The notes under the pieces: model-generated | Databases searched by the model: none | The model's input: only the letters and a program-made list of their open reading frames with translations | Told to the model about the DNA's origin: nothing | NCBI RefSeq assembly: GCF_965197445.1 | Contig: NZ_CBDANE010000005.1 | Span: 139,877 to 203,876, forward strand | Source of the DNA: Candidatus Palauibacter sp. | GTDB lineage: Bacteria; Gemmatimonadota; Gemmatimonadetes; Palauibacterales; Palauibacteraceae | Length of the DNA: 64,000 nt | Reading direction: 5' to 3' | Program-made: the position numbers and the translations under genes | Shown here: one piece after another, positions 54,646-60,747 of the stretch | Numbering within the stretch: the first letter of the stretch is position 1 | Layout: every line of letters begins with the position of its first letter

Positions 54646-56709
54646 CTACGAGCCGGCGTCCTCGGAGACGGCCGGCCGATCACGGTGGGTGCCGAAGCGC
54701 TCGAACCAGCTGCGCAGGAAGAGCTGTGTGCGCAGGAAGTTCGAGGGCGTGCTGCTCGTCCCGTGCCACTCGTTGCGGAAGCGGATCATGGCCGTCGGCA
54801 CGCGCTCCATCTTCAGCGCCTGGTAGTACTCCTCGGTCTGCGGCATCGGCGTCCGCAGGTCCATCTCCCCCGTCATCAGCATGGTGGGCGTCGTCACGTT
54901 GCCCACGTACATAAGCGGCGAGCGGCGCAGGTGTTCCGAGGGGTCGTCCCACGGGAAGTTCTCGAAGTTGCGATACCAGCCGGGGCCGTCCGTCGTCCCC
55001 ACGAAGGAGAGCCAGTTCGTGACCGGACAGTTCGCCGAGGCGGCGCGGAAGCGGTCCGTGTGGCCGACCACCCATGAGGTGAGCACGCCGCCTCCGGAGC
55101 AGCCGTACACGAACATGTTGTCTTCGTCGACGTAGCCGCGGTCCAGGACCTCATCGACGCCCGCCATCAGGTCGTCGAAGTCCTTCGAGGGGTACGCGTT
55201 CTTGATCGCGTTCCCGAAGTCCGTGCCGTACCCGGAGCTGCCGCGGGGGTTGGTGTAGAGGACGACGTACCCGTTCGCGGCGTGTTCCTGCCACCCGAAG
55301 TTGAAGCCCGTGTTGTACATGCCGTGCGGGCCGCCATGGATCGAGAGGATCAGCGGATACCGCTCCGACGGATCGAAGTCCGGCGGCTTCACGATCCAGC
55401 CCTGGATGTCCCAGTCATCCACCGATTTGTACCAGACTTCCTCGACATCGCCGAGGGTGACGCCCGCCAGCACGTCGTCGTTCACGTGCGTGAGCTGCCG
55501 CAGGTCGCCTCCGTCGTCTAGATCGAAGGACACGACATCGCCCGGACCGTGGGCGTCGCTCAGGGTGCCGACCGCCATCCCGTTCTGGTTGAAGGAACTC
55601 AGGCCGAGGAGGTGGTTGCCGTTCGTGACCTGGGTCACGCCCCCGTCCAGAGACGCGAAGTGCAGGTTGCGCGTGCCCTCCCGGTTCACGTTGAAGTAGA
55701 CCCCGCTCCCGTCCGGTGCCCACATGAGCTGCGGGCTCCCGCGCATGCCGCGGTCGAAGTCTCCCGAGATCTGCCGCATGCCCGTGCCATCCGGGTTCAT
55801 CACGTAGATGTGGGAGTTCCGGTACGTGTCGTCGTTCCACGGCTGACCCGAGTAGGCGATGAGGCTGCCGTCGGGCGAGGGATAGGCGCCGCCGTCCGGC
55901 CCGTATCGCGACGTGAGCTGCCGGATCGAACCCGCGCCCACGTTCACCGCATAGATCTCCGATTCCCGCCAGTTGTACTCGGAGTCCTGCTCGCGCAGCG
56001 ACGAGAAGTAGACTTCGCCCCCGTCCGGACTCCACTGCGGGTTGCTATGGTTCCATATGCCGTCGGTGAGCTGCCGCGGCGTTCCGCCGTCGGCCGGAAC
56101 CACGAAGATGTGGGAATGACCCTGGTCGACGTACCCGCGCCGGTCCTGACGATAGTCCATGCGGGTGACGATCTTGGGGCCTTCCGTCCACTTGGCTCCG
56201 TCCGGGCGGCTCGGCATGTCGAGCGGCCAGCTCTCCTCGTCCTCCACCAGCATGGTGAACGCGATCTGCGTGCCGTCCGGGGACCAGCGGAGGCTGCCGG
56301 GAGACTGTTCAACCCGCGTGATCTGGGTGGTCGCGCCCTCCGCATCCATCCAGCGCACGAAGATCTGCGAGCCCTCCGGCTCGCCCTCCGCGGTGAAGGC
56401 GATGCGGGTGCCGTCCGGTGACCAGATCGCCCCCGAGCCGTCGATCAGCTCGCGCTTTCGGGTGCCATCTGCGTTCATGATGTACAGGGTGGATTCCCAG
56501 CGGTCGTTGATCTGATCGATCAAGCCCTTCGTGTAGACGACGTGGCGACCATCCGGGGAGATCTGGGGGTTGGAGACGCGCTCCCAGTCCATGTACATGT
56601 CGAGGGACAGGGTTTTGGGCCCGTCCCCGTTCTGGGCCGAGAGCGGCGCGACCCCGACGAAGAGGACCAGAAGCAGACTCGCGGAAGTGAAGCGGGCGGC
56701 GCGATACAT
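54646..56709 (-). CDS. S9 family serine peptidase with an N-terminal TolB-like beta-propeller, secreted
   Basis: Signal peptide MYRAARFTSASLLLVLFVGVAPLSAQ. SPDG-repeat propeller. Catalytic nucleophile motif GCSGGG. C-terminal Asp and His of the triad (GEMDLRTP, NEWHG). Confidence 0.85.
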   Translation of the reverse strand: MYRAARFTSASLLLVLFVGVAPLSAQNGDGPKTLSLDMYMDWERVSNPQISPDGRHVVYTKGLIDQINDRWESTLYIMNADGTRKRELIDGSGAIWSPDGTRIAFTAEGEPEGSQIFVRWMDAEGATTQITRVEQSPGSLRWSPDGTQIAFTMLVEDEESWPLDMPSRPDGAKWTEGPKIVTRMDYRQDRRGYVDQGHSHIFVVPADGGTPRQLTDGIWNHSNPQWSPDGGEVYFSSLREQDSEYNWRESEIYAVNVGAGSIRQLTSRYGPDGGAYPSPDGSLIAYSGQPWNDDTYRNSHIYVMNPDGTGMRQISGDFDRGMRGSPQLMWAPDGSGVYFNVNREGTRNLHFASLDGGVTQVTNGNHLLGLSSFNQNGMAVGTLSDAHGPGDVVSFDLDDGGDLRQLTHVNDDVLAGVTLGDVEEVWYKSVDDWDIQGWIVKPPDFDPSERYPLILSIHGGPHGMYNTGFNFGWQEHAANGYVVLYTNPRGSSGYGTDFGNAIKNAYPSKDFDDLMAGVDEVLDRGYVDEDNMFVYGCSGGGVLTSWVVGHTDRFRAASANCPVTNWLSFVGTTDGPGWYRNFENFPWDDPSEHLRRSPLMYVGNVTTPTMLMTGEMDLRTPMPQTEEYYQALKMERVPTAMIRFRNEWHGTSSTPSNFLRTQLFLRSWFERFGTHRDRPAVSEDAGS

Positions 56710-56899
56710 GACTACCTCCTGCCGAAAGCGGGACACCGTGCAGATCTTCAACGTACGCCGGAGAACGCGGGCCGCGAAACCGCACGCCCCCGCCGGACGC
56801 CGCGAGCCACAAGGGGAAGCGTCGGCGCTGGCGTGCCGGCCGGGTGGCGATGCAGCTTGCGTCGAGCTTGAGCAGAGGGAATTCCGGAAGAGGTGCATC

Positions 56900-59248
56900 A
56901 TGGATCGACGAGTGCTCTCGGTGGCGGCGGCGCTGGTCCTCGCGGTGCCGGCGGGCGTCGGCGCGCAGCAGTTCGGCGGTGCGCTGGCGGTGAGCGGCGA
57001 TCAGGTGCTGGTCGGCGAGGCCGGCAACGGGACGATGTCGGGGATCGTTTGGGTCTTCGGCCGAACCGCCGCGGGCTGGGCCGAGACAGGCCAGGTCACG
57101 GTGTCCGACGAGATACGGGTGCCGGACGGCTTCGGGCGCGCGATCGCCGCACGCGGGGAGTGGTTGTGGGCGGGCGCGCCGCTCGAAGGGGACGGCGCCG
57201 GCGCGGTCTACGTGTTCCGGGCGGACGGGTCGGGCGGCTGGGAGCAGGTCGCCCGGCTTGAAGCGCCGGGGGACGCGAGCGCGTTCGGGAGCGCGATCGC
57301 CCTCACCGGCGACGTAGCGATCGTGGCCGCACCCGGGGCGGAGAATGGCCGCGGGACTGTGTTCTCCTACGCCGTCGGCCCGGACGGGGGGTTGACCACC
57401 GGCCGGGCCGTGCGACCGCCGGACGGTGTGGCCGTCTCCGGTTTCGGCGCGGCGCTGGCGCTCGACGGCGGCACGCTGCTCGTAGGCACGCGCGAGGACG
57501 ATGGCGCGCCCCCCGCCGTGTTCGCGTTTGAGCCCAGCGGCGACGGCGCGTGGACGGCCGCCGGCCAACTCGAAGCGCCGTCGCTCTCGGAGCGGAGCAA
57601 CTTTGGCGCCACGCTCGCGCTGCGCGACGGTTTCGCGCTCGTGGGCGCCGCGACGATGAGGGAGAGCGGCGGAGCGGTGTTCGCGTTCGCACGCGGTCCG
57701 GAGGACTGGGCCCTGGAAGCCCGGCTCGGCCCGCTGCTGCCCGAACCCAACGCGCAGTTCGGGTCCTCCATCGGCTTTGATGGCGACGCGATCCTCATCG
57801 GGGCGGCGGGCAGTTCGTTCGGCGCCGGAACGCTGTACGCCTACCGGCGCGACGCGGACGGCCGCTGGAGCGAGGCGTCCGTACTGATGCGCTCGCCGCT
57901 CGGGGAGCGTTCCGGCTTCGGCAGCGCGACCGCCCGGTCAGGTGACCATCTCGTCATTGGGGCGACCGGCATGGATTCGCGCGCCGGCGCCGCTGTCGTC
58001 TACGAGCGGTCCGGCGGCGGCGCCTGGGAAGCGGCCGGAACTCTCGTGAACGACCACCGGGGCTTCCCCGCCATCGCGGGCGAGGAGATCGAGTGCACCG
58101 AAGGCCACGCCACGGTGTTCGAATGCCGGGACGTGAACATCACCGCGTTCATGCCGATCAAGGACCTTGGCGGCACCCGGGCCACGCGCGTCAACGACAT
58201 CTGGGGCTGGACGGACCCGGAAACGGGCCGCGAGATCGCGATCGTCGGCCGCACGGACGGCACCTCTTTCGTCGACGTCAGCGACCCCTACCGCCCGCGC
58301 TTTCTCGGCGACCTGCCGGCCACCGAGGGCTCGCGGCACATGATCTGGCGCGACATCAAGGTGTATCGCGATCACGCCTACATCGTCGCCGACGCCGCCC
58401 TCGAGCACGGGGTGCAGGTCTTCGATCTCCGGCAACTGCGAGACGTGGGGGACGAACCGGTGACGTTCGGGGAGACCTACCTCTACGACGGGATTCACTC
58501 GGCCCACAACATCGTCATCAACGAGGAGACCGGCTTCGCCTATACCGTCGGGAACAGCGGAGGAGGCGAGACCTGCGGCGGCGGCCTCCACATGCTGAAC
58601 CTCGAGGAACCCGGCCGGCCGGTCTTCGCCGGCTGTTTCGCGCAGGAGGGGACGGGGCGTCGCGGCACCGGCTACGTGCACGACGCGCAGTGCGTCACCT
58701 ACCGCGGGCCCGATACTGAACACGCCGGCAAGGAGATCTGCCTCGGGTCGAACGAGACGGCGTTCAACATCGCCGACGTGACGGACAAGGATGCGCCGGT
58801 TGCCCTGGCCACGATCGACTATCCGAACGTGGCCTATGCGCACCAGGGGTGGCTGACCGACGACCACCGCTACTTCTACATGAACGACGAGGGAGACGAG
58901 CCCCAGGGTCTCGTGCCCGGGACGCGCACGCTGGTGTGGGACGTGACGGATCTCGACGACCCCATCCTCGTCACCGAATACATCGCCGAGACGACGGCCA
59001 CGGACCACAACCTCTACATCGTCGGCGATCTCATGTACCAGTCGAACTACTCGGCCGGATTCCGGGTCCTCGACATCTCGGACCCCGAGAACCCGGTCGA
59101 GATCGGCTTCTTCGACACTTCGCCCTACGAGGGCGGCGCATCGTGGAGTAACTACCCGTACTTCGAGAGCGGGACGATTGCGGTGACGGGAACGGGCGAC
59201 GGGCTCTTCCTGCTCAAGAACATGGCGAGACCGCGCCTCGTGCCGTGA
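56900..59248 (+). CDS. Secreted beta-propeller protein: N-terminal FG-GAP-like repeats fused to a choice-of-anchor B (LVIVD) domain
   Basis: Signal peptide MDRRVLSVAAALVLAVPAGVGAQ. Repeated FG...G blades. The C-terminal 400 aa is paralogous to 31525-32868 (NDIWGWTDPETG, HMIWRDIKVY, GLHMLNLEEP, FRVLDISDPENP). Confidence 0.7.
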   Translation: MDRRVLSVAAALVLAVPAGVGAQQFGGALAVSGDQVLVGEAGNGTMSGIVWVFGRTAAGWAETGQVTVSDEIRVPDGFGRAIAARGEWLWAGAPLEGDGAGAVYVFRADGSGGWEQVARLEAPGDASAFGSAIALTGDVAIVAAPGAENGRGTVFSYAVGPDGGLTTGRAVRPPDGVAVSGFGAALALDGGTLLVGTREDDGAPPAVFAFEPSGDGAWTAAGQLEAPSLSERSNFGATLALRDGFALVGAATMRESGGAVFAFARGPEDWALEARLGPLLPEPNAQFGSSIGFDGDAILIGAAGSSFGAGTLYAYRRDADGRWSEASVLMRSPLGERSGFGSATARSGDHLVIGATGMDSRAGAAVVYERSGGGAWEAAGTLVNDHRGFPAIAGEEIECTEGHATVFECRDVNITAFMPIKDLGGTRATRVNDIWGWTDPETGREIAIVGRTDGTSFVDVSDPYRPRFLGDLPATEGSRHMIWRDIKVYRDHAYIVADAALEHGVQVFDLRQLRDVGDEPVTFGETYLYDGIHSAHNIVINEETGFAYTVGNSGGGETCGGGLHMLNLEEPGRPVFAGCFAQEGTGRRGTGYVHDAQCVTYRGPDTEHAGKEICLGSNETAFNIADVTDKDAPVALATIDYPNVAYAHQGWLTDDHRYFYMNDEGDEPQGLVPGTRTLVWDVTDLDDPILVTEYIAETTATDHNLYIVGDLMYQSNYSAGFRVLDISDPENPVEIGFFDTSPYEGGASWSNYPYFESGTIAVTGTGDGLFLLKNMARPRLVP

Positions 59249-59710: not shown

Positions 59711-60118
59711 CTAGAGCGAACCCCGCGGGGCGACCCACTCGGCTTTCTGTCCTGTGACGGCCGCGATCGTGTCGAAGTCCGCAGCGTAGTGGAGAATGGT
59801 CATGCGCGCGGCCTCCGCGGCGGCCGCAATGATGAGGTCCGGGATCGGCACCCGGTGCTGTGCGCGACGCGCCAGGAGTCCCTGCACCGCAATGGCCCGC
59901 TGGAAGATTACTTCGGTGAGTGGCACCTGACGGTAAGCCAGTGCACGCCGGGCGCGTGCCCGTGCGTGCTCTTCGTGATTCCCGGTGGAGTAGAGAACTT
60001 CCAGTTCCATGATGGCGCAGGTCGCTGCCTGGCCTGATTCGATGATCGGTGCGAGCCTCGCCTGGACACTCGGATGTGCGATGCGGGACAGCGCACTCTT
60101 GTCGATGAGGTAAGGCAC
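59711..60118 (-). CDS. vapC: PIN-domain toxin, VapC family
   Basis: MPYLIDKSALSRI...MELEVLYS...IPDLIIAAAAEAARMTILHYAADFD carries the conserved acidic residues of the PIN fold. Confidence 0.7.
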   Translation of the reverse strand: MPYLIDKSALSRIAHPSVQARLAPIIESGQAATCAIMELEVLYSTGNHEEHARARARRALAYRQVPLTEVIFQRAIAVQGLLARRAQHRVPIPDLIIAAAAEAARMTILHYAADFDTIAAVTGQKAEWVAPRGSL

Positions 60119-60138: not shown

Positions 60139-60348
60139 TCAGGAACGCCAGGCGCCGGCCATGACCTTCTCGTCGGCCAGTTCGAGTCCATCCATCTTCA
60201 CCAGGGCCTCGATTTCCTGGCGTCTAGCCTCCCGGCGCAAGACTTCGCGCAGAGCCGAGTCGATCGTCTCCTTGATGGAGGATGTCCCAAGCAGGATCCG
60301 TACCTGTTCGATCAGCCTGTCGTCAATTTCTACGCTGGTCTTTCTCAT
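60139..60348 (-). CDS. vapB: VapB-type antitoxin
   Basis: MRKTSVEIDDRLIEQVRILLGTSSIKETIDSALREVL. Confidence 0.65.
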   Translation of the reverse strand: MRKTSVEIDDRLIEQVRILLGTSSIKETIDSALREVLRREARRQEIEALVKMDGLELADEKVMAGAWRS

Positions 60349-60371
60349 TCGACACATCCCAGCCACCATGG

Positions 60372-60410
60372 AGGATATATAGATCGTTCCTATCTATATA
60401 TCTCCGTCGT
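60372..60410. promoter_or_regulatory. AT-rich imperfect palindrome upstream of vapB; likely operator/promoter
   Basis: GGAGGATATATAGATCG-ttc-CTATCTATATATCTCC. It is a local AT-rich island in a ~68% GC background and contains TATATA -10-like elements. Confidence 0.45.
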
Positions 60411-60493
60411 GCAAGTCAAGAGATCCCCGCAACACGGAACTCGCCGTCTTGATAGCTGGATGCGGCCAAGCCGGACACTGCGCCTGGCCCCTC

Positions 60494-60688
60494 GGAGGCG
60501 AGGGTTCGGCGGGGGCGGTACTGGTGTACCCGGTGTGGACTCGACACCCGACCGGCGGGGTTCAATTCCCCGCGCCTCCACCTCTCCCTCAACGAGGGTT
60601 CGGCGGGGGCGGTACTGGTGTACCCGGTAAGGGCTTGACACTCGACCGGCGGGGTTCGATTCCCCGCGCCTCCACCTTCCCCTCGACG
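60494..60688 (+). repeat. Tandem repeat (~94-bp period, two full units plus a partial) of tRNA-like modules with canonical T-arm and acceptor sequences
   Basis: Each unit contains CGGGGTTC(A/G)ATTCCCCG (a perfect T stem-loop), then CGCCTCC-A-CC, plus a conserved GGTAC-TGGT-GTACC hairpin. Only unit 1 has a complementary 5' GGAGGCG acceptor strand and a 5-bp/7-nt anticodon-like hairpin (GGTGT-GGACTCG-ACACC). Unit 2 lacks both. Confidence 0.5.
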
Positions 60689-60747
60689 TTTGAACCTATT
60701 CCGGGCTCGCAGCCGCGTAAAGCGACGACCCGGAGGGCGGCGTCCCG

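Follow-up and report, generated by a model that had tools for sequence, protein, structure and literature searches.

Two adjacent genes for a compact tRNA-like RNA with alanine identity elements in Candidatus Palauibacter

We analyzed the region at positions 60494-60688 of a 64,000-nucleotide (nt) stretch of DNA from Candidatus Palauibacter sp. (NZ_CBDANE010000005.1, positions 139,877 to 203,876), the whole of which is called the window below. The region consists of two adjacent, intact genes for a compact 72-nt transfer RNA (tRNA)-like RNA, each with its own cloverleaf. We are highly confident that the two units are genuine, selected genes of the tRNA superfamily carrying alanine identity elements. 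The best explanation as a whole, that of compact alanine-identity tRNA-like genes whose products would act as weak near-cognate decoders or as charged tRNA mimics, is given a probability of about 0.55. An earlier note had described the same region as an array of tRNA-like modules that cannot be folded into canonical tRNAs.

Architecture of the Two Units

A direct repeat of two copies of 94 nt with 90% identity occupies 60499-60592 and 60593-60686, bearing out the tandem units of about 94 bp reported in the note. A T stem-loop followed by CGCCTCC, A and CC was found at 60557-60582 and 60651-60676, as claimed there for these two units and with both T stem-loops perfect, and none of 100 shuffles gave a match. 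The shared hairpin GGTAC-TGGT-GTACC was likewise recovered, inside the 20-mer GGGGGCGGTACTGGTGTACC, of which each repeat copy holds one. Neither of the two elements has a further occurrence in the window or in the shuffled controls.

Unit 1 spans 60511-60582 on the forward strand and returned 74 bits (E = 4e-12) with model R1, a covariance model built from the family alignment presented below. Its acceptor pairs 60511-60517 with 60573-60579 and includes G3:U70; the D-hairpin lies at 60518-60529, the central arm at 60530-60555 with the loop CUCGACA at 60540-60546, the T-arm at 60556-60572, A73 at 60580 and CC at 60581-60582. Unit 2 (60605-60676, forward strand, 72 nt; 77 bits, E = 1e-12) has the same architecture, with the 5' acceptor strand at 60605-60611 and the loop CUUGACA at 60634-60640.

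In both units the acceptor GGGGGCG/CGCCUCC forms 7 bp with a G3:U70 wobble and is followed by A73 and an encoded CC; the terminal A of CCA is not encoded, since the base after CC is U. The D-hairpin, GUAC-UGGU-GUAC (4 bp with a 4-nt loop), abuts the acceptor without U8 or N9 and keeps the GG that docks on the T-loop. The central arm is built of CCGGU/ACCGG, an internal loop and GG(R)/(Y)CC closing on CUCGACA in unit 1 or CUUGACA in unit 2, and it abuts the T-stem, so that the variable loop is absent. The closing pair of the anticodon-type loop in unit 1 is A-C, and this loop may comprise 9 nt. The T-arm, CGGGG-UUCRAUU-CCCCG, is canonical with 5 bp. When folded alone (73 nt), units 1 and 2 gave an identical four-arm cloverleaf with energies of -38.4 and -37.3 kcal/mol and z values of -2.2 and -2.6, respectively.

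These results amend the earlier description, according to which only unit 1 had a complementary 5' acceptor strand while unit 2 lacked both acceptor pairing and an anticodon hairpin: the strand GGGGGCG lies inside the repeat and occurs in both units, and unit 2 adopts the same cloverleaf as unit 1. A partial third unit upstream was not confirmed either, as a pattern search allowing up to three mismatches and model R1 both returned exactly two units in the window and nothing resembling a third. The likeness that had been taken for it consists of the leader hairpin only (CCCTC...GAGGG).

Conservation in Candidatus Palauibacter

Near-identical copies stand as a tandem pair at this locus in three other Ca. 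Palauibacter genomes, again with the convergent amidohydrolase gene downstream. Across the four loci, 90% of the positions of unit 1 and 89% of those of unit 2 are invariant, against 36% in the leader and 51% in the trailer; the figures are 70% for the inter-unit spacer and 79% for the adjoining coding 3' end. The D-hairpin is 100% invariant in both units, and so are the acceptor strands except for one G5-to-A change in unit 2 of loci L404 and L374. Other variation among the four loci is confined to the central arm and the T-loop.

Annotation Tools and the Long-tRNA Interpretation

At gathering score, no Rfam family, tRNA included, matched anywhere in the window, and the standard high-scoring tRNA that the note had named as the outcome that would overturn its view of unit 1 did not appear. 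ARAGORN called an 89-nt 'tRNA-Thr(GGT)' at 60494-60582. This call takes as its 5' strand GGAGGCG (60494-60500), which pairs perfectly with CGCCTCC (inverted repeats I2 and I3) but lies outside the repeat. We rejected it as the acceptor strand because it is not conserved and its fold is unstable: the orthologous loci have GGAGGGA, GGAGAGA and CGAGCCG in its place, and a 90-nt version built on it yielded a centroid with the acceptor and T-arm only (z = -0.9).

A single real long tRNA, either the 89-nt tRNA-Thr(GGU) or a selenocysteine (Sec)-like one, accompanied by a partial duplicate left by integration as an att scar or pseudogene, is therefore hardly credible, despite the ARAGORN call, the perfect pairing of GGAGGCG and the presence of mobile-type genes (VapBC) nearby. 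The Sec-like tRNA of 87 nt proposed in the note depends on the same unconserved strand and shares the lack of a stable centroid. Its alternative of a tRNA pseudogene duplicated by integration does not agree with two complete copies that are under selection and about 90% invariant between diverged flanks; moreover, the pair stands at the same locus in the three other genomes, and the window contains neither an integrase nor a transposase.

A second ARAGORN call in the window, an 82-nt 'tRNA-Phe(GAA)' at 57223-57304 on the forward strand, was discarded as spurious. It falls inside an open reading frame (ORF) of 892 amino acids with FG-GAP repeats (56570-59248) and is supported by neither Rfam nor model R1, as expected of a false positive in GC-rich coding sequence. 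Within the family described below, ARAGORN called 23 of 106 members and mislabelled them, while the Rfam tRNA model missed all the compact forms tested.

A Wider Family of tRNA-like Genes

A refined genome pattern, validated on loci already retrieved, matched at least 119 loci, and removal of transfer-messenger RNA (tmRNA) 3' ends adjoining smpB left at least 105 distinct sequences of 64-76 nt. Among the sequences removed were the identical 66-nt Acidimicrobiales matches, L450 and L484, which are genuine tmRNA 3' ends beside smpB. Other patterns were abandoned: one for the 3' half picked up tmRNA 3' ends, and loose DNA patterns were swamped by tRNA-Tyr, phage tRNA-Ala and ordinary tRNA-Ala (CTTTGCA register), although the latter still revealed a few look-alikes with the common loop C-U-Y-N-N-C/U-A.

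Besides Ca. Palauibacter (Gemmatimonadota), the hosts include sponge symbionts of the Acidimicrobiia, Dehalococcoidia, Bryobacteraceae and a cyanobacterium; many Peribacteria, Peregrinibacteria, Saccharibacteria and others of the Patescibacteria or Candidate Phyla Radiation (CPR); and Caulobacter, Mesorhizobium, Hoeflea, Nitrobacter and Parvibaculum, together with phage contigs.

The acceptor is a perfect 7-bp helix in 95 of 105 sequences among the matches listed, positions 5-7 and 66-68 having been left free in the pattern. Covariation was evaluated on 76 sequences pre-filtered for a perfect acceptor and a length of 68-73 nt. Double compensatory changes numbered 41-44 per free acceptor pair and 28, 32 and 7 at the three free T-stem pairs, and the covariation score was 0.461; shuffles gave 0.128, none of 500 attaining the observed value, and slid registers gave no more than 0.132. 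Such a column alignment under-counts the D-hairpin and the outer central helix, whose lengths vary. The GG of the D-loop, unconstrained by the pattern, is invariant or nearly so throughout the family.

Constrained folding produced the two-hairpin middle of a cloverleaf in 69 of 94 members and placed the heptamer in a terminal loop in about 73 of them. The 3' strand of the central arm measures 9-11 nt in 78 of 81 compact members, where the pattern permitted 6-17, and the canonical positions 39-48 amount to 10 nt. The nucleotides that usually make up the variable loop are taken up in a lengthened helix, preserving the distance from the elbow to the loop.

With model R1 most family members scored 55-77 bits and a few full-size or divergent ones 40-53, while genuine tRNAs in the same loci gave 34-42 bits. 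The model also recovered copies that the pattern could not select, namely the second copy of L374, the first of L406 and a gene at 2218-2288 of L452. Both window units fit the R1 family in its length of about 66-75 nt, G3:U70, compact D-hairpin with GG, central arm with a 3' strand of 9-11 nt, loop C-U-N-N-N-Y-A and canonical T-arm. The note's suggestion of a family of tRNA-derived structured repeats thus holds as far as membership in a large tRNA-like family is concerned, but the members are stand-alone genes rather than dispersed repeats. Full-size members from CPR genomes (L440, L471, L413) have normal D-arms and variable loops and pass the Rfam tRNA model RF00005 at 44-61 bits, whereas the compact members tested remain below its gathering score. 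The family is continuous with true tRNAs.

Alanine Identity and the Anticodon-Type Loop

Both units combine G3:U70 with A73, which are alanine identity elements, and thereby have all known determinants for charging with alanine, within overall dimensions that are canonical; neither has an NGC anticodon for the GCN codons, the triplets being CGA in unit 1 and UGA in unit 2. The loop register was derived from the full-size member L440, which RF00005 aligns at 61 bits with CUUGACA placed on C-U-u-a-u-A-A, giving C32-U33-U34-G35-A36-C37-A38. On this register the hallmark of the family is G3:U70 and A73 together with a non-alanine triplet and C37. Position 37 is C in 87 and U in 7 of 94 members, under a pattern that allowed either, and it is C in both units; in decoding tRNAs this position is a purine.

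The family triplets are UGA (24), UGU (11), CGA (10), UCC (8), UAC (8), CGU (7) and UUC (4), with the ochre- and amber-type UUA (7) and CUA (2), and most lie one substitution from alanine's UGC/CGC. Paralogues often differ at position 34 alone, U in one and C in the other, as do the window pair (CGA/UGA) and that of L394 (UGU/CGU), a difference that codon readers would show.

Going by neighbouring genes, the family occurs in polycistrons of irregular tRNAs. The pattern-independent gene at 2218-2288 of L452 has the triplet UGG but retains G3:U70 and C37, and 8 nt separate it from a member with UUA. An ochre tRNA with a long variable arm occupies 1087-1169 of L467 (reverse strand; loop CUUUAAA with A37; RF00005 60.8 bits), 2 nt downstream of a compact member with which it would form a putative natural pair of nonsense suppressors.

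An 8-nt loop with a quadruplet anticodon, which would restore A37, was rejected for full-size members, in which RF00005 aligns a 7-nt loop; some compact members possibly have an 8-nt loop, as the minimum free energy structure does in 21 of 94.

Comparison with Known tRNA-like Systems

The closest described counterparts are the allo-tRNAs and other irregular bacterial tRNAs, some with G3:U70, that carry non-cognate or stop anticodons (Mukai et al., 2017, Nucleic Acids Research; PMC5389517). In E. coli, Ala is inserted by irregular tRNAs that have G3:U70 and a non-Ala anticodon; more generally, some irregular tRNAs insert Ala or Ser in that host and others are charged yet unused in translation, and such genes are found in polycistrons and in the vicinity of toxin-antitoxin systems and transposable elements (PMC5389517). 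The acceptor/T branch of allo-tRNAs is 8/4 or 9/3, and their variable arm is long, whereas the units have a 7/5 branch and no variable loop, with a 12-nt D-hairpin, an extended central helix and C37 as further distinctions. The branch is 7/5 and not 8/4 because G8 cannot pair with G65 and the T-stem has 5 bp; the distant relatives L089 and L436 could be drawn as 8/4. The taxa differ as well, allo-tRNAs coming from Acidobacteria, Clostridia and Proteobacteria and the present family from Gemmatimonadota, CPR, Chloroflexota and Alphaproteobacteria.

With tRNA-Ala the units share the GGGG start, G3:U70, A73 and the canonical T-arm, but they have CGA or UGA in place of NGC, C37 instead of A, an internal loop in the central arm and no variable loop. 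Compact phage tRNA-Ala(UGC) genes with normal A37 loops were found in L134 (8921-8991) and L185 (517-588), both on the forward strand. Model R1 gives them 55-62 bits, and they have the same 4-bp/4-nt D-hairpin, which reads GUAA-UGGG-UUAC in L185. The L134 gene belongs to an array of about 20 phage tRNAs, so a compact form does not by itself speak against tRNA function. Both genes are missed by the Rfam tRNA model at gathering score, and such phage tRNAs are therefore probably under-annotated.

Compared with the canonical tRNA, the units have the 7-bp acceptor, the 5-bp T-stem with a T-psi-C-type loop, and the discriminator with CC. They lack U8, the 3-4-bp D-stem with a 7-11-nt loop and the variable loop of at least 4 nt, they match the 7-nt loop with U33 but not the purine at 37, and they score below the 29-bit gathering score of RF00005. 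None of the features of tRNA-Sec (8/5 branch, 6-bp D-stem, long variable arm, UCA anticodon) is present. The mascRNA/MEN-beta model (RF01684) scored 34.1 bits on unit 2, below its gathering score of 42.5, and the likeness lies in the compact cloverleaf with short D-arm and T-arm. The mascRNA family is eukaryotic; its members are released from long non-coding RNAs through processing at the 3' end and are not known to be aminoacylated.

The best match in Rfam was tmRNA. At a permissive threshold its model gave 34.5 bits for unit 1 and 34.7 for unit 2 (gathering score 47; E about 2e-11) in alignments that span both units from end to end with 328 internal model positions deleted, and these place CGCCUCC opposite GGGGGCG, the strand inside the repeat and hence present in both units. 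The units could on this ground be minimal tmRNAs reduced to the tRNA-like domain, for tag-less ribosome rescue assisted by SmpB, or decayed tmRNAs. Their 5' end, T-arm and 3' end align with tmRNA (RF00023), with which they share the G3:U70 acceptor, the ACC end and CUGG after the acceptor. No smpB gene was seen near the locus.

A BLAST search returned no match in plasmids, and its sole match in phages was a permuted tmRNA of Caulobacter jumbo phages. This two-piece tmRNA, at L491 1483-1792 (phage RB23, MZ574433.1 144840-145149; RF04321 73.9 bits), has the same acceptor as the window units, GGGGGCG/CGCCUCC. The GenBank record annotates no feature there, and six related jumbo phages have equally unannotated BLAST matches to the acceptor part. 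Lookalikes of 64-68 nt with the tmRNA domain only also exist in viral contigs.

We nevertheless regard a minimal tmRNA as quite improbable. The scores stay below the gathering score and ARAGORN called no tmRNA; 25 nt stand where the model has its 328 positions, and the mRNA-like reading frame and pseudoknots of RF00023/RF04321 are missing. The D-hairpin and the anticodon-type arm with its conserved 7-nt U33 loop are not found in tmRNA tRNA-like domains, and there is a gradual passage from the family to full-size cloverleaf tRNAs that RF00005 accepts. RNAs with the tmRNA domain only reach 38-50 bits with R1, against 55-77 for most members. The Rfam permuted-tmRNA match across the unit junction is an artefact, as two tandem units mimic the permuted order, in which the genuine permuted tmRNA of the Caulobacter phage is arranged.

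The domain-only RNAs form a group of their own, 63-80 nt long and resembling the tRNA-like domain of tmRNA alone (GGGG..GA..UGG.UUCGAC, one hairpin, GGAC, T-arm, CACCUCCACC) but lacking a tag reading frame. Phage-like contigs often contain them, and they were seen in IMG/VR (L121, L129, L135, L141, L149, L159, L161, L171, L191, L193, L198, L203) and in metagenome loci (L016, L044, L063, L108, L113).

Finally, the tRNA-Other of Bacillus cereus, as cited in PMC5389517, is an irregular, chromosomal tRNA-like RNA that is aminoacylated and not thought to be a normal elongator; it belongs to a Lys system and differs in structure from the units. No description of the present architecture or family was found in the literature searched. 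The units are best read as natural non-canonical tRNAs, closest to allo-tRNAs in concept and structurally distinct from them.

Flanking Elements and Neighboring Genes

The 5' leader (60489-60510, forward strand) forms the hairpin CCCTC-GGAGGC-GAGGG followed by TTCGGC and includes GGAGGCG. Unlike the latter, the segment GAGGG..CGGC just before the GGGG start is conserved in all four Palauibacter genomes. The 22-nt inter-unit spacer (60583-60604, forward strand) carries the hairpin CCCTC-AAC-GAGGG (60586-60598) and the TTCGGC leader of unit 2; the hairpin is kept in all four genomes and is a candidate processing element. A box about 48 nt 5' of unit 1 (CTTGATAGCTGGATGC, also written CTTGATAGCnGGATGC; 60448-60463, forward strand) has a core, TTGAT..GG.TG, that is invariant in the four-genome alignment while the leader around it has diverged, which makes it a candidate promoter element. 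The form CTTGATAGCnGGATGC is similar to the heptamer of the loop, CUUGAYA.

Between unit 2 and the convergent amidohydrolase gene, a trailer block conserved in the same alignment (AACCTATTCCGGGCTCGCAGCCGCGTAAAGCG, read as AACCTATTSCGGGCTCGC..CGTAAAGC; 60693-60724, forward strand) is a candidate terminator or processing signal. Simple consensus scans detected neither a sigma-70 promoter nor an intrinsic terminator around the pair. The loop sequence TTGACA was considered as a -35 box and rejected, as no -10 element follows at 15-18 bp and the simple scan found no promoter. The two units are probably co-transcribed as a single precursor.

A divergent VapBC pair lies 125 nt upstream of the units (vapB 60139-60369, reverse strand; VapC 59711-60118). 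Among the four syntenic loci it is present in the window and L404 only, and it is therefore an insertion beside the RNA genes and not a partner, which makes the association pointed out in the note incidental. A perfect 11-nt inverted repeat, GATATATAGAT / ATCTATATATC (60374-60402), in an AT-rich island directly upstream of vapB, probably represents the VapBC operator/promoter.

In 150 sampled flanks of the family, the nearest neighbors were mostly scattered, unrelated housekeeping genes, as around tRNA genes; no dedicated partner protein was found among them, and the only recurrent families were IS1-like and IS1595 transposases. A divergent IS1-like transposase gene follows the RNA on the same strand, at a distance of 29-355 nt, in about 13 loci, and an IS1595 transposase recurs in a fixed arrangement in about 10. 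The RNA gene could accordingly be part of a mobile element, as cargo, guide or insertion landmark of IS1-like or IS1595 elements, with the Palauibacter pair a relic. Collinear homology in the linked loci indeed starts 4-37 nt before the RNA and continues through the transposase gene, and a member from a Hoeflea genome recurs unchanged in a viral contig of IMG/VR. We consider this improbable, given that the window has neither transposase, that the pair is stably syntenic in Palauibacter, that most family loci have ordinary housekeeping neighbors and that the best inverted-repeat pair in L407 brackets the transposase only.

The IS1-like-linked loci include L445, L382, L452, L423, L407, L469, L479, L443, L398, L483, L468 and L455. 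Their DDE transposases score 51-91 bits with the NCBIfam IS1 model, below its cutoff of 100, and the linked RNAs often have ochre/amber-type loops (CUUUACA, CUCUACA). A conserved ORF of 230-320 amino acids, divergent and upstream, often accompanies this subgroup and has no family match, only a weak Csa3-type winged-helix one.

In IS1595-linked loci, a small ORF between the transposase and the RNA gene ends in DSEIPF, DTEIPF, DDDTPF or DDDIPF (L463 2099-2635, reverse; L465 3966-4478, forward; L434 2003-2575, reverse; L392 662-1297, forward) and has no Pfam, PHROG or PADLOC match. We take its acidic tail to resemble the C-terminal tip of the bacterial single-stranded DNA-binding protein.

Proposed Role

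In the scheme that we favor, extrapolated from established tRNA biology, the precursor would be cut by RNase P and 3' nucleases and the terminal A supplied by the CCA-adding enzyme. Alanyl-tRNA synthetase would then charge the RNA with alanine by reading G3:U70 and A73 and ignoring the anticodon, and the 12-bp acceptor/T branch would permit binding to EF-Tu. The alanine donor would meet the serine codons UCG and UCA, one copy presenting C34 and the other U34, and the pyrimidine at 37 would keep decoding deliberately weak, resulting in low-level Ser-to-Ala miscoding here and, elsewhere in the family, in Thr-, Val-, Gly-, Glu- or stop-to-Ala miscoding or readthrough. Alternatively, within the same explanation, the charged RNA might serve as a tRNA mimic outside elongation. 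Both outcomes, Ala insertion and charging without use, are reported for allo-tRNAs and irregular tRNAs (PMC5389517). We favored the decoder because U33, the 7-nt loop, the arm length and the U34/C34 paralogues argue for an anticodon-like presentation, and we propose this attenuated role specifically as a tentative assignment.

Several observations weigh against this explanation. Decoding on the ribosome may be lost altogether through the pyrimidine at position 37, the internal loop of the central arm and the lack of a variable loop. The second unit has an A5-C68 mismatch in L404 and L374, and the three other Palauibacter genomes have UGA in both copies, so the C34/U34 pairing is not fixed; gene conversion could partly explain the near-identity of the two units. 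Furthermore, the pattern forced GGGG...CUCCACC, Y34, H36 and Y37, and the universality of alanine identity and C37 is therefore partly built in. Independent support for it comes only from a few unselected members and from the 87:7 preference for C over U.

The main rival of the attenuated decoder is a tRNA mimic, charged or uncharged, with a function outside elongation: as decoy, sponge or regulator it would engage proteins that recognize the shape and anticodon loop of tRNAs, for instance tRNA-cleaving PIN/VapC toxins, modification enzymes or proteins of mobile elements. C37 sets the units apart from decoding tRNAs, a divergent VapBC pair lies close upstream, many relatives adjoin IS1-like or IS1595 transposases, and irregular tRNAs near toxin-antitoxin systems or transposons can be charged but unused in translation (PMC5389517). 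We consider such a mimic a serious but doubtful candidate, as two of the four syntenic loci lack VapBC, the 150 nearest neighbors are enriched for transposases but for no other protein family, toxin-antitoxin systems included, and the strict retention of G3:U70, A73 and CC is hard to explain for a decoy.

A broader proposal, which we consider unlikely as it stands, is that the family forms a widespread, undescribed class of alanine-identity tRNAs constituting a tunable system of alanine misincorporation and stop readthrough. Its members would be full-size in CPR and compact elsewhere, with a pyrimidine at 37; tandem U34/C34 pairs would be frequent and a link with IS1-like or IS1595 elements occasional, and the triplets would be one step from alanine (Ser, Thr, Pro, Val, Gly, Glu) or match stop codons.

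Implications

Since standard tools miss these genes, they are probably absent from many genome annotations. If the RNAs are charged with alanine, as predicted from their identity elements, dedicated RNAs for its misplacement exist in many bacteria, CPR lineages and sponge symbionts among them, and alanine could go to serine, threonine, valine, glycine or stop codons; alternatively, the imitation of tRNA would be directed towards toxins and mobile elements. The compact scaffold of 72 nt without a variable loop and the C37 loop offer testable design features for orthogonal tRNAs. The finding would carry the allo-tRNA story well past Acidobacteria, and it bears on the extent to which natural mistranslation and codon ambiguity are built into genomes.

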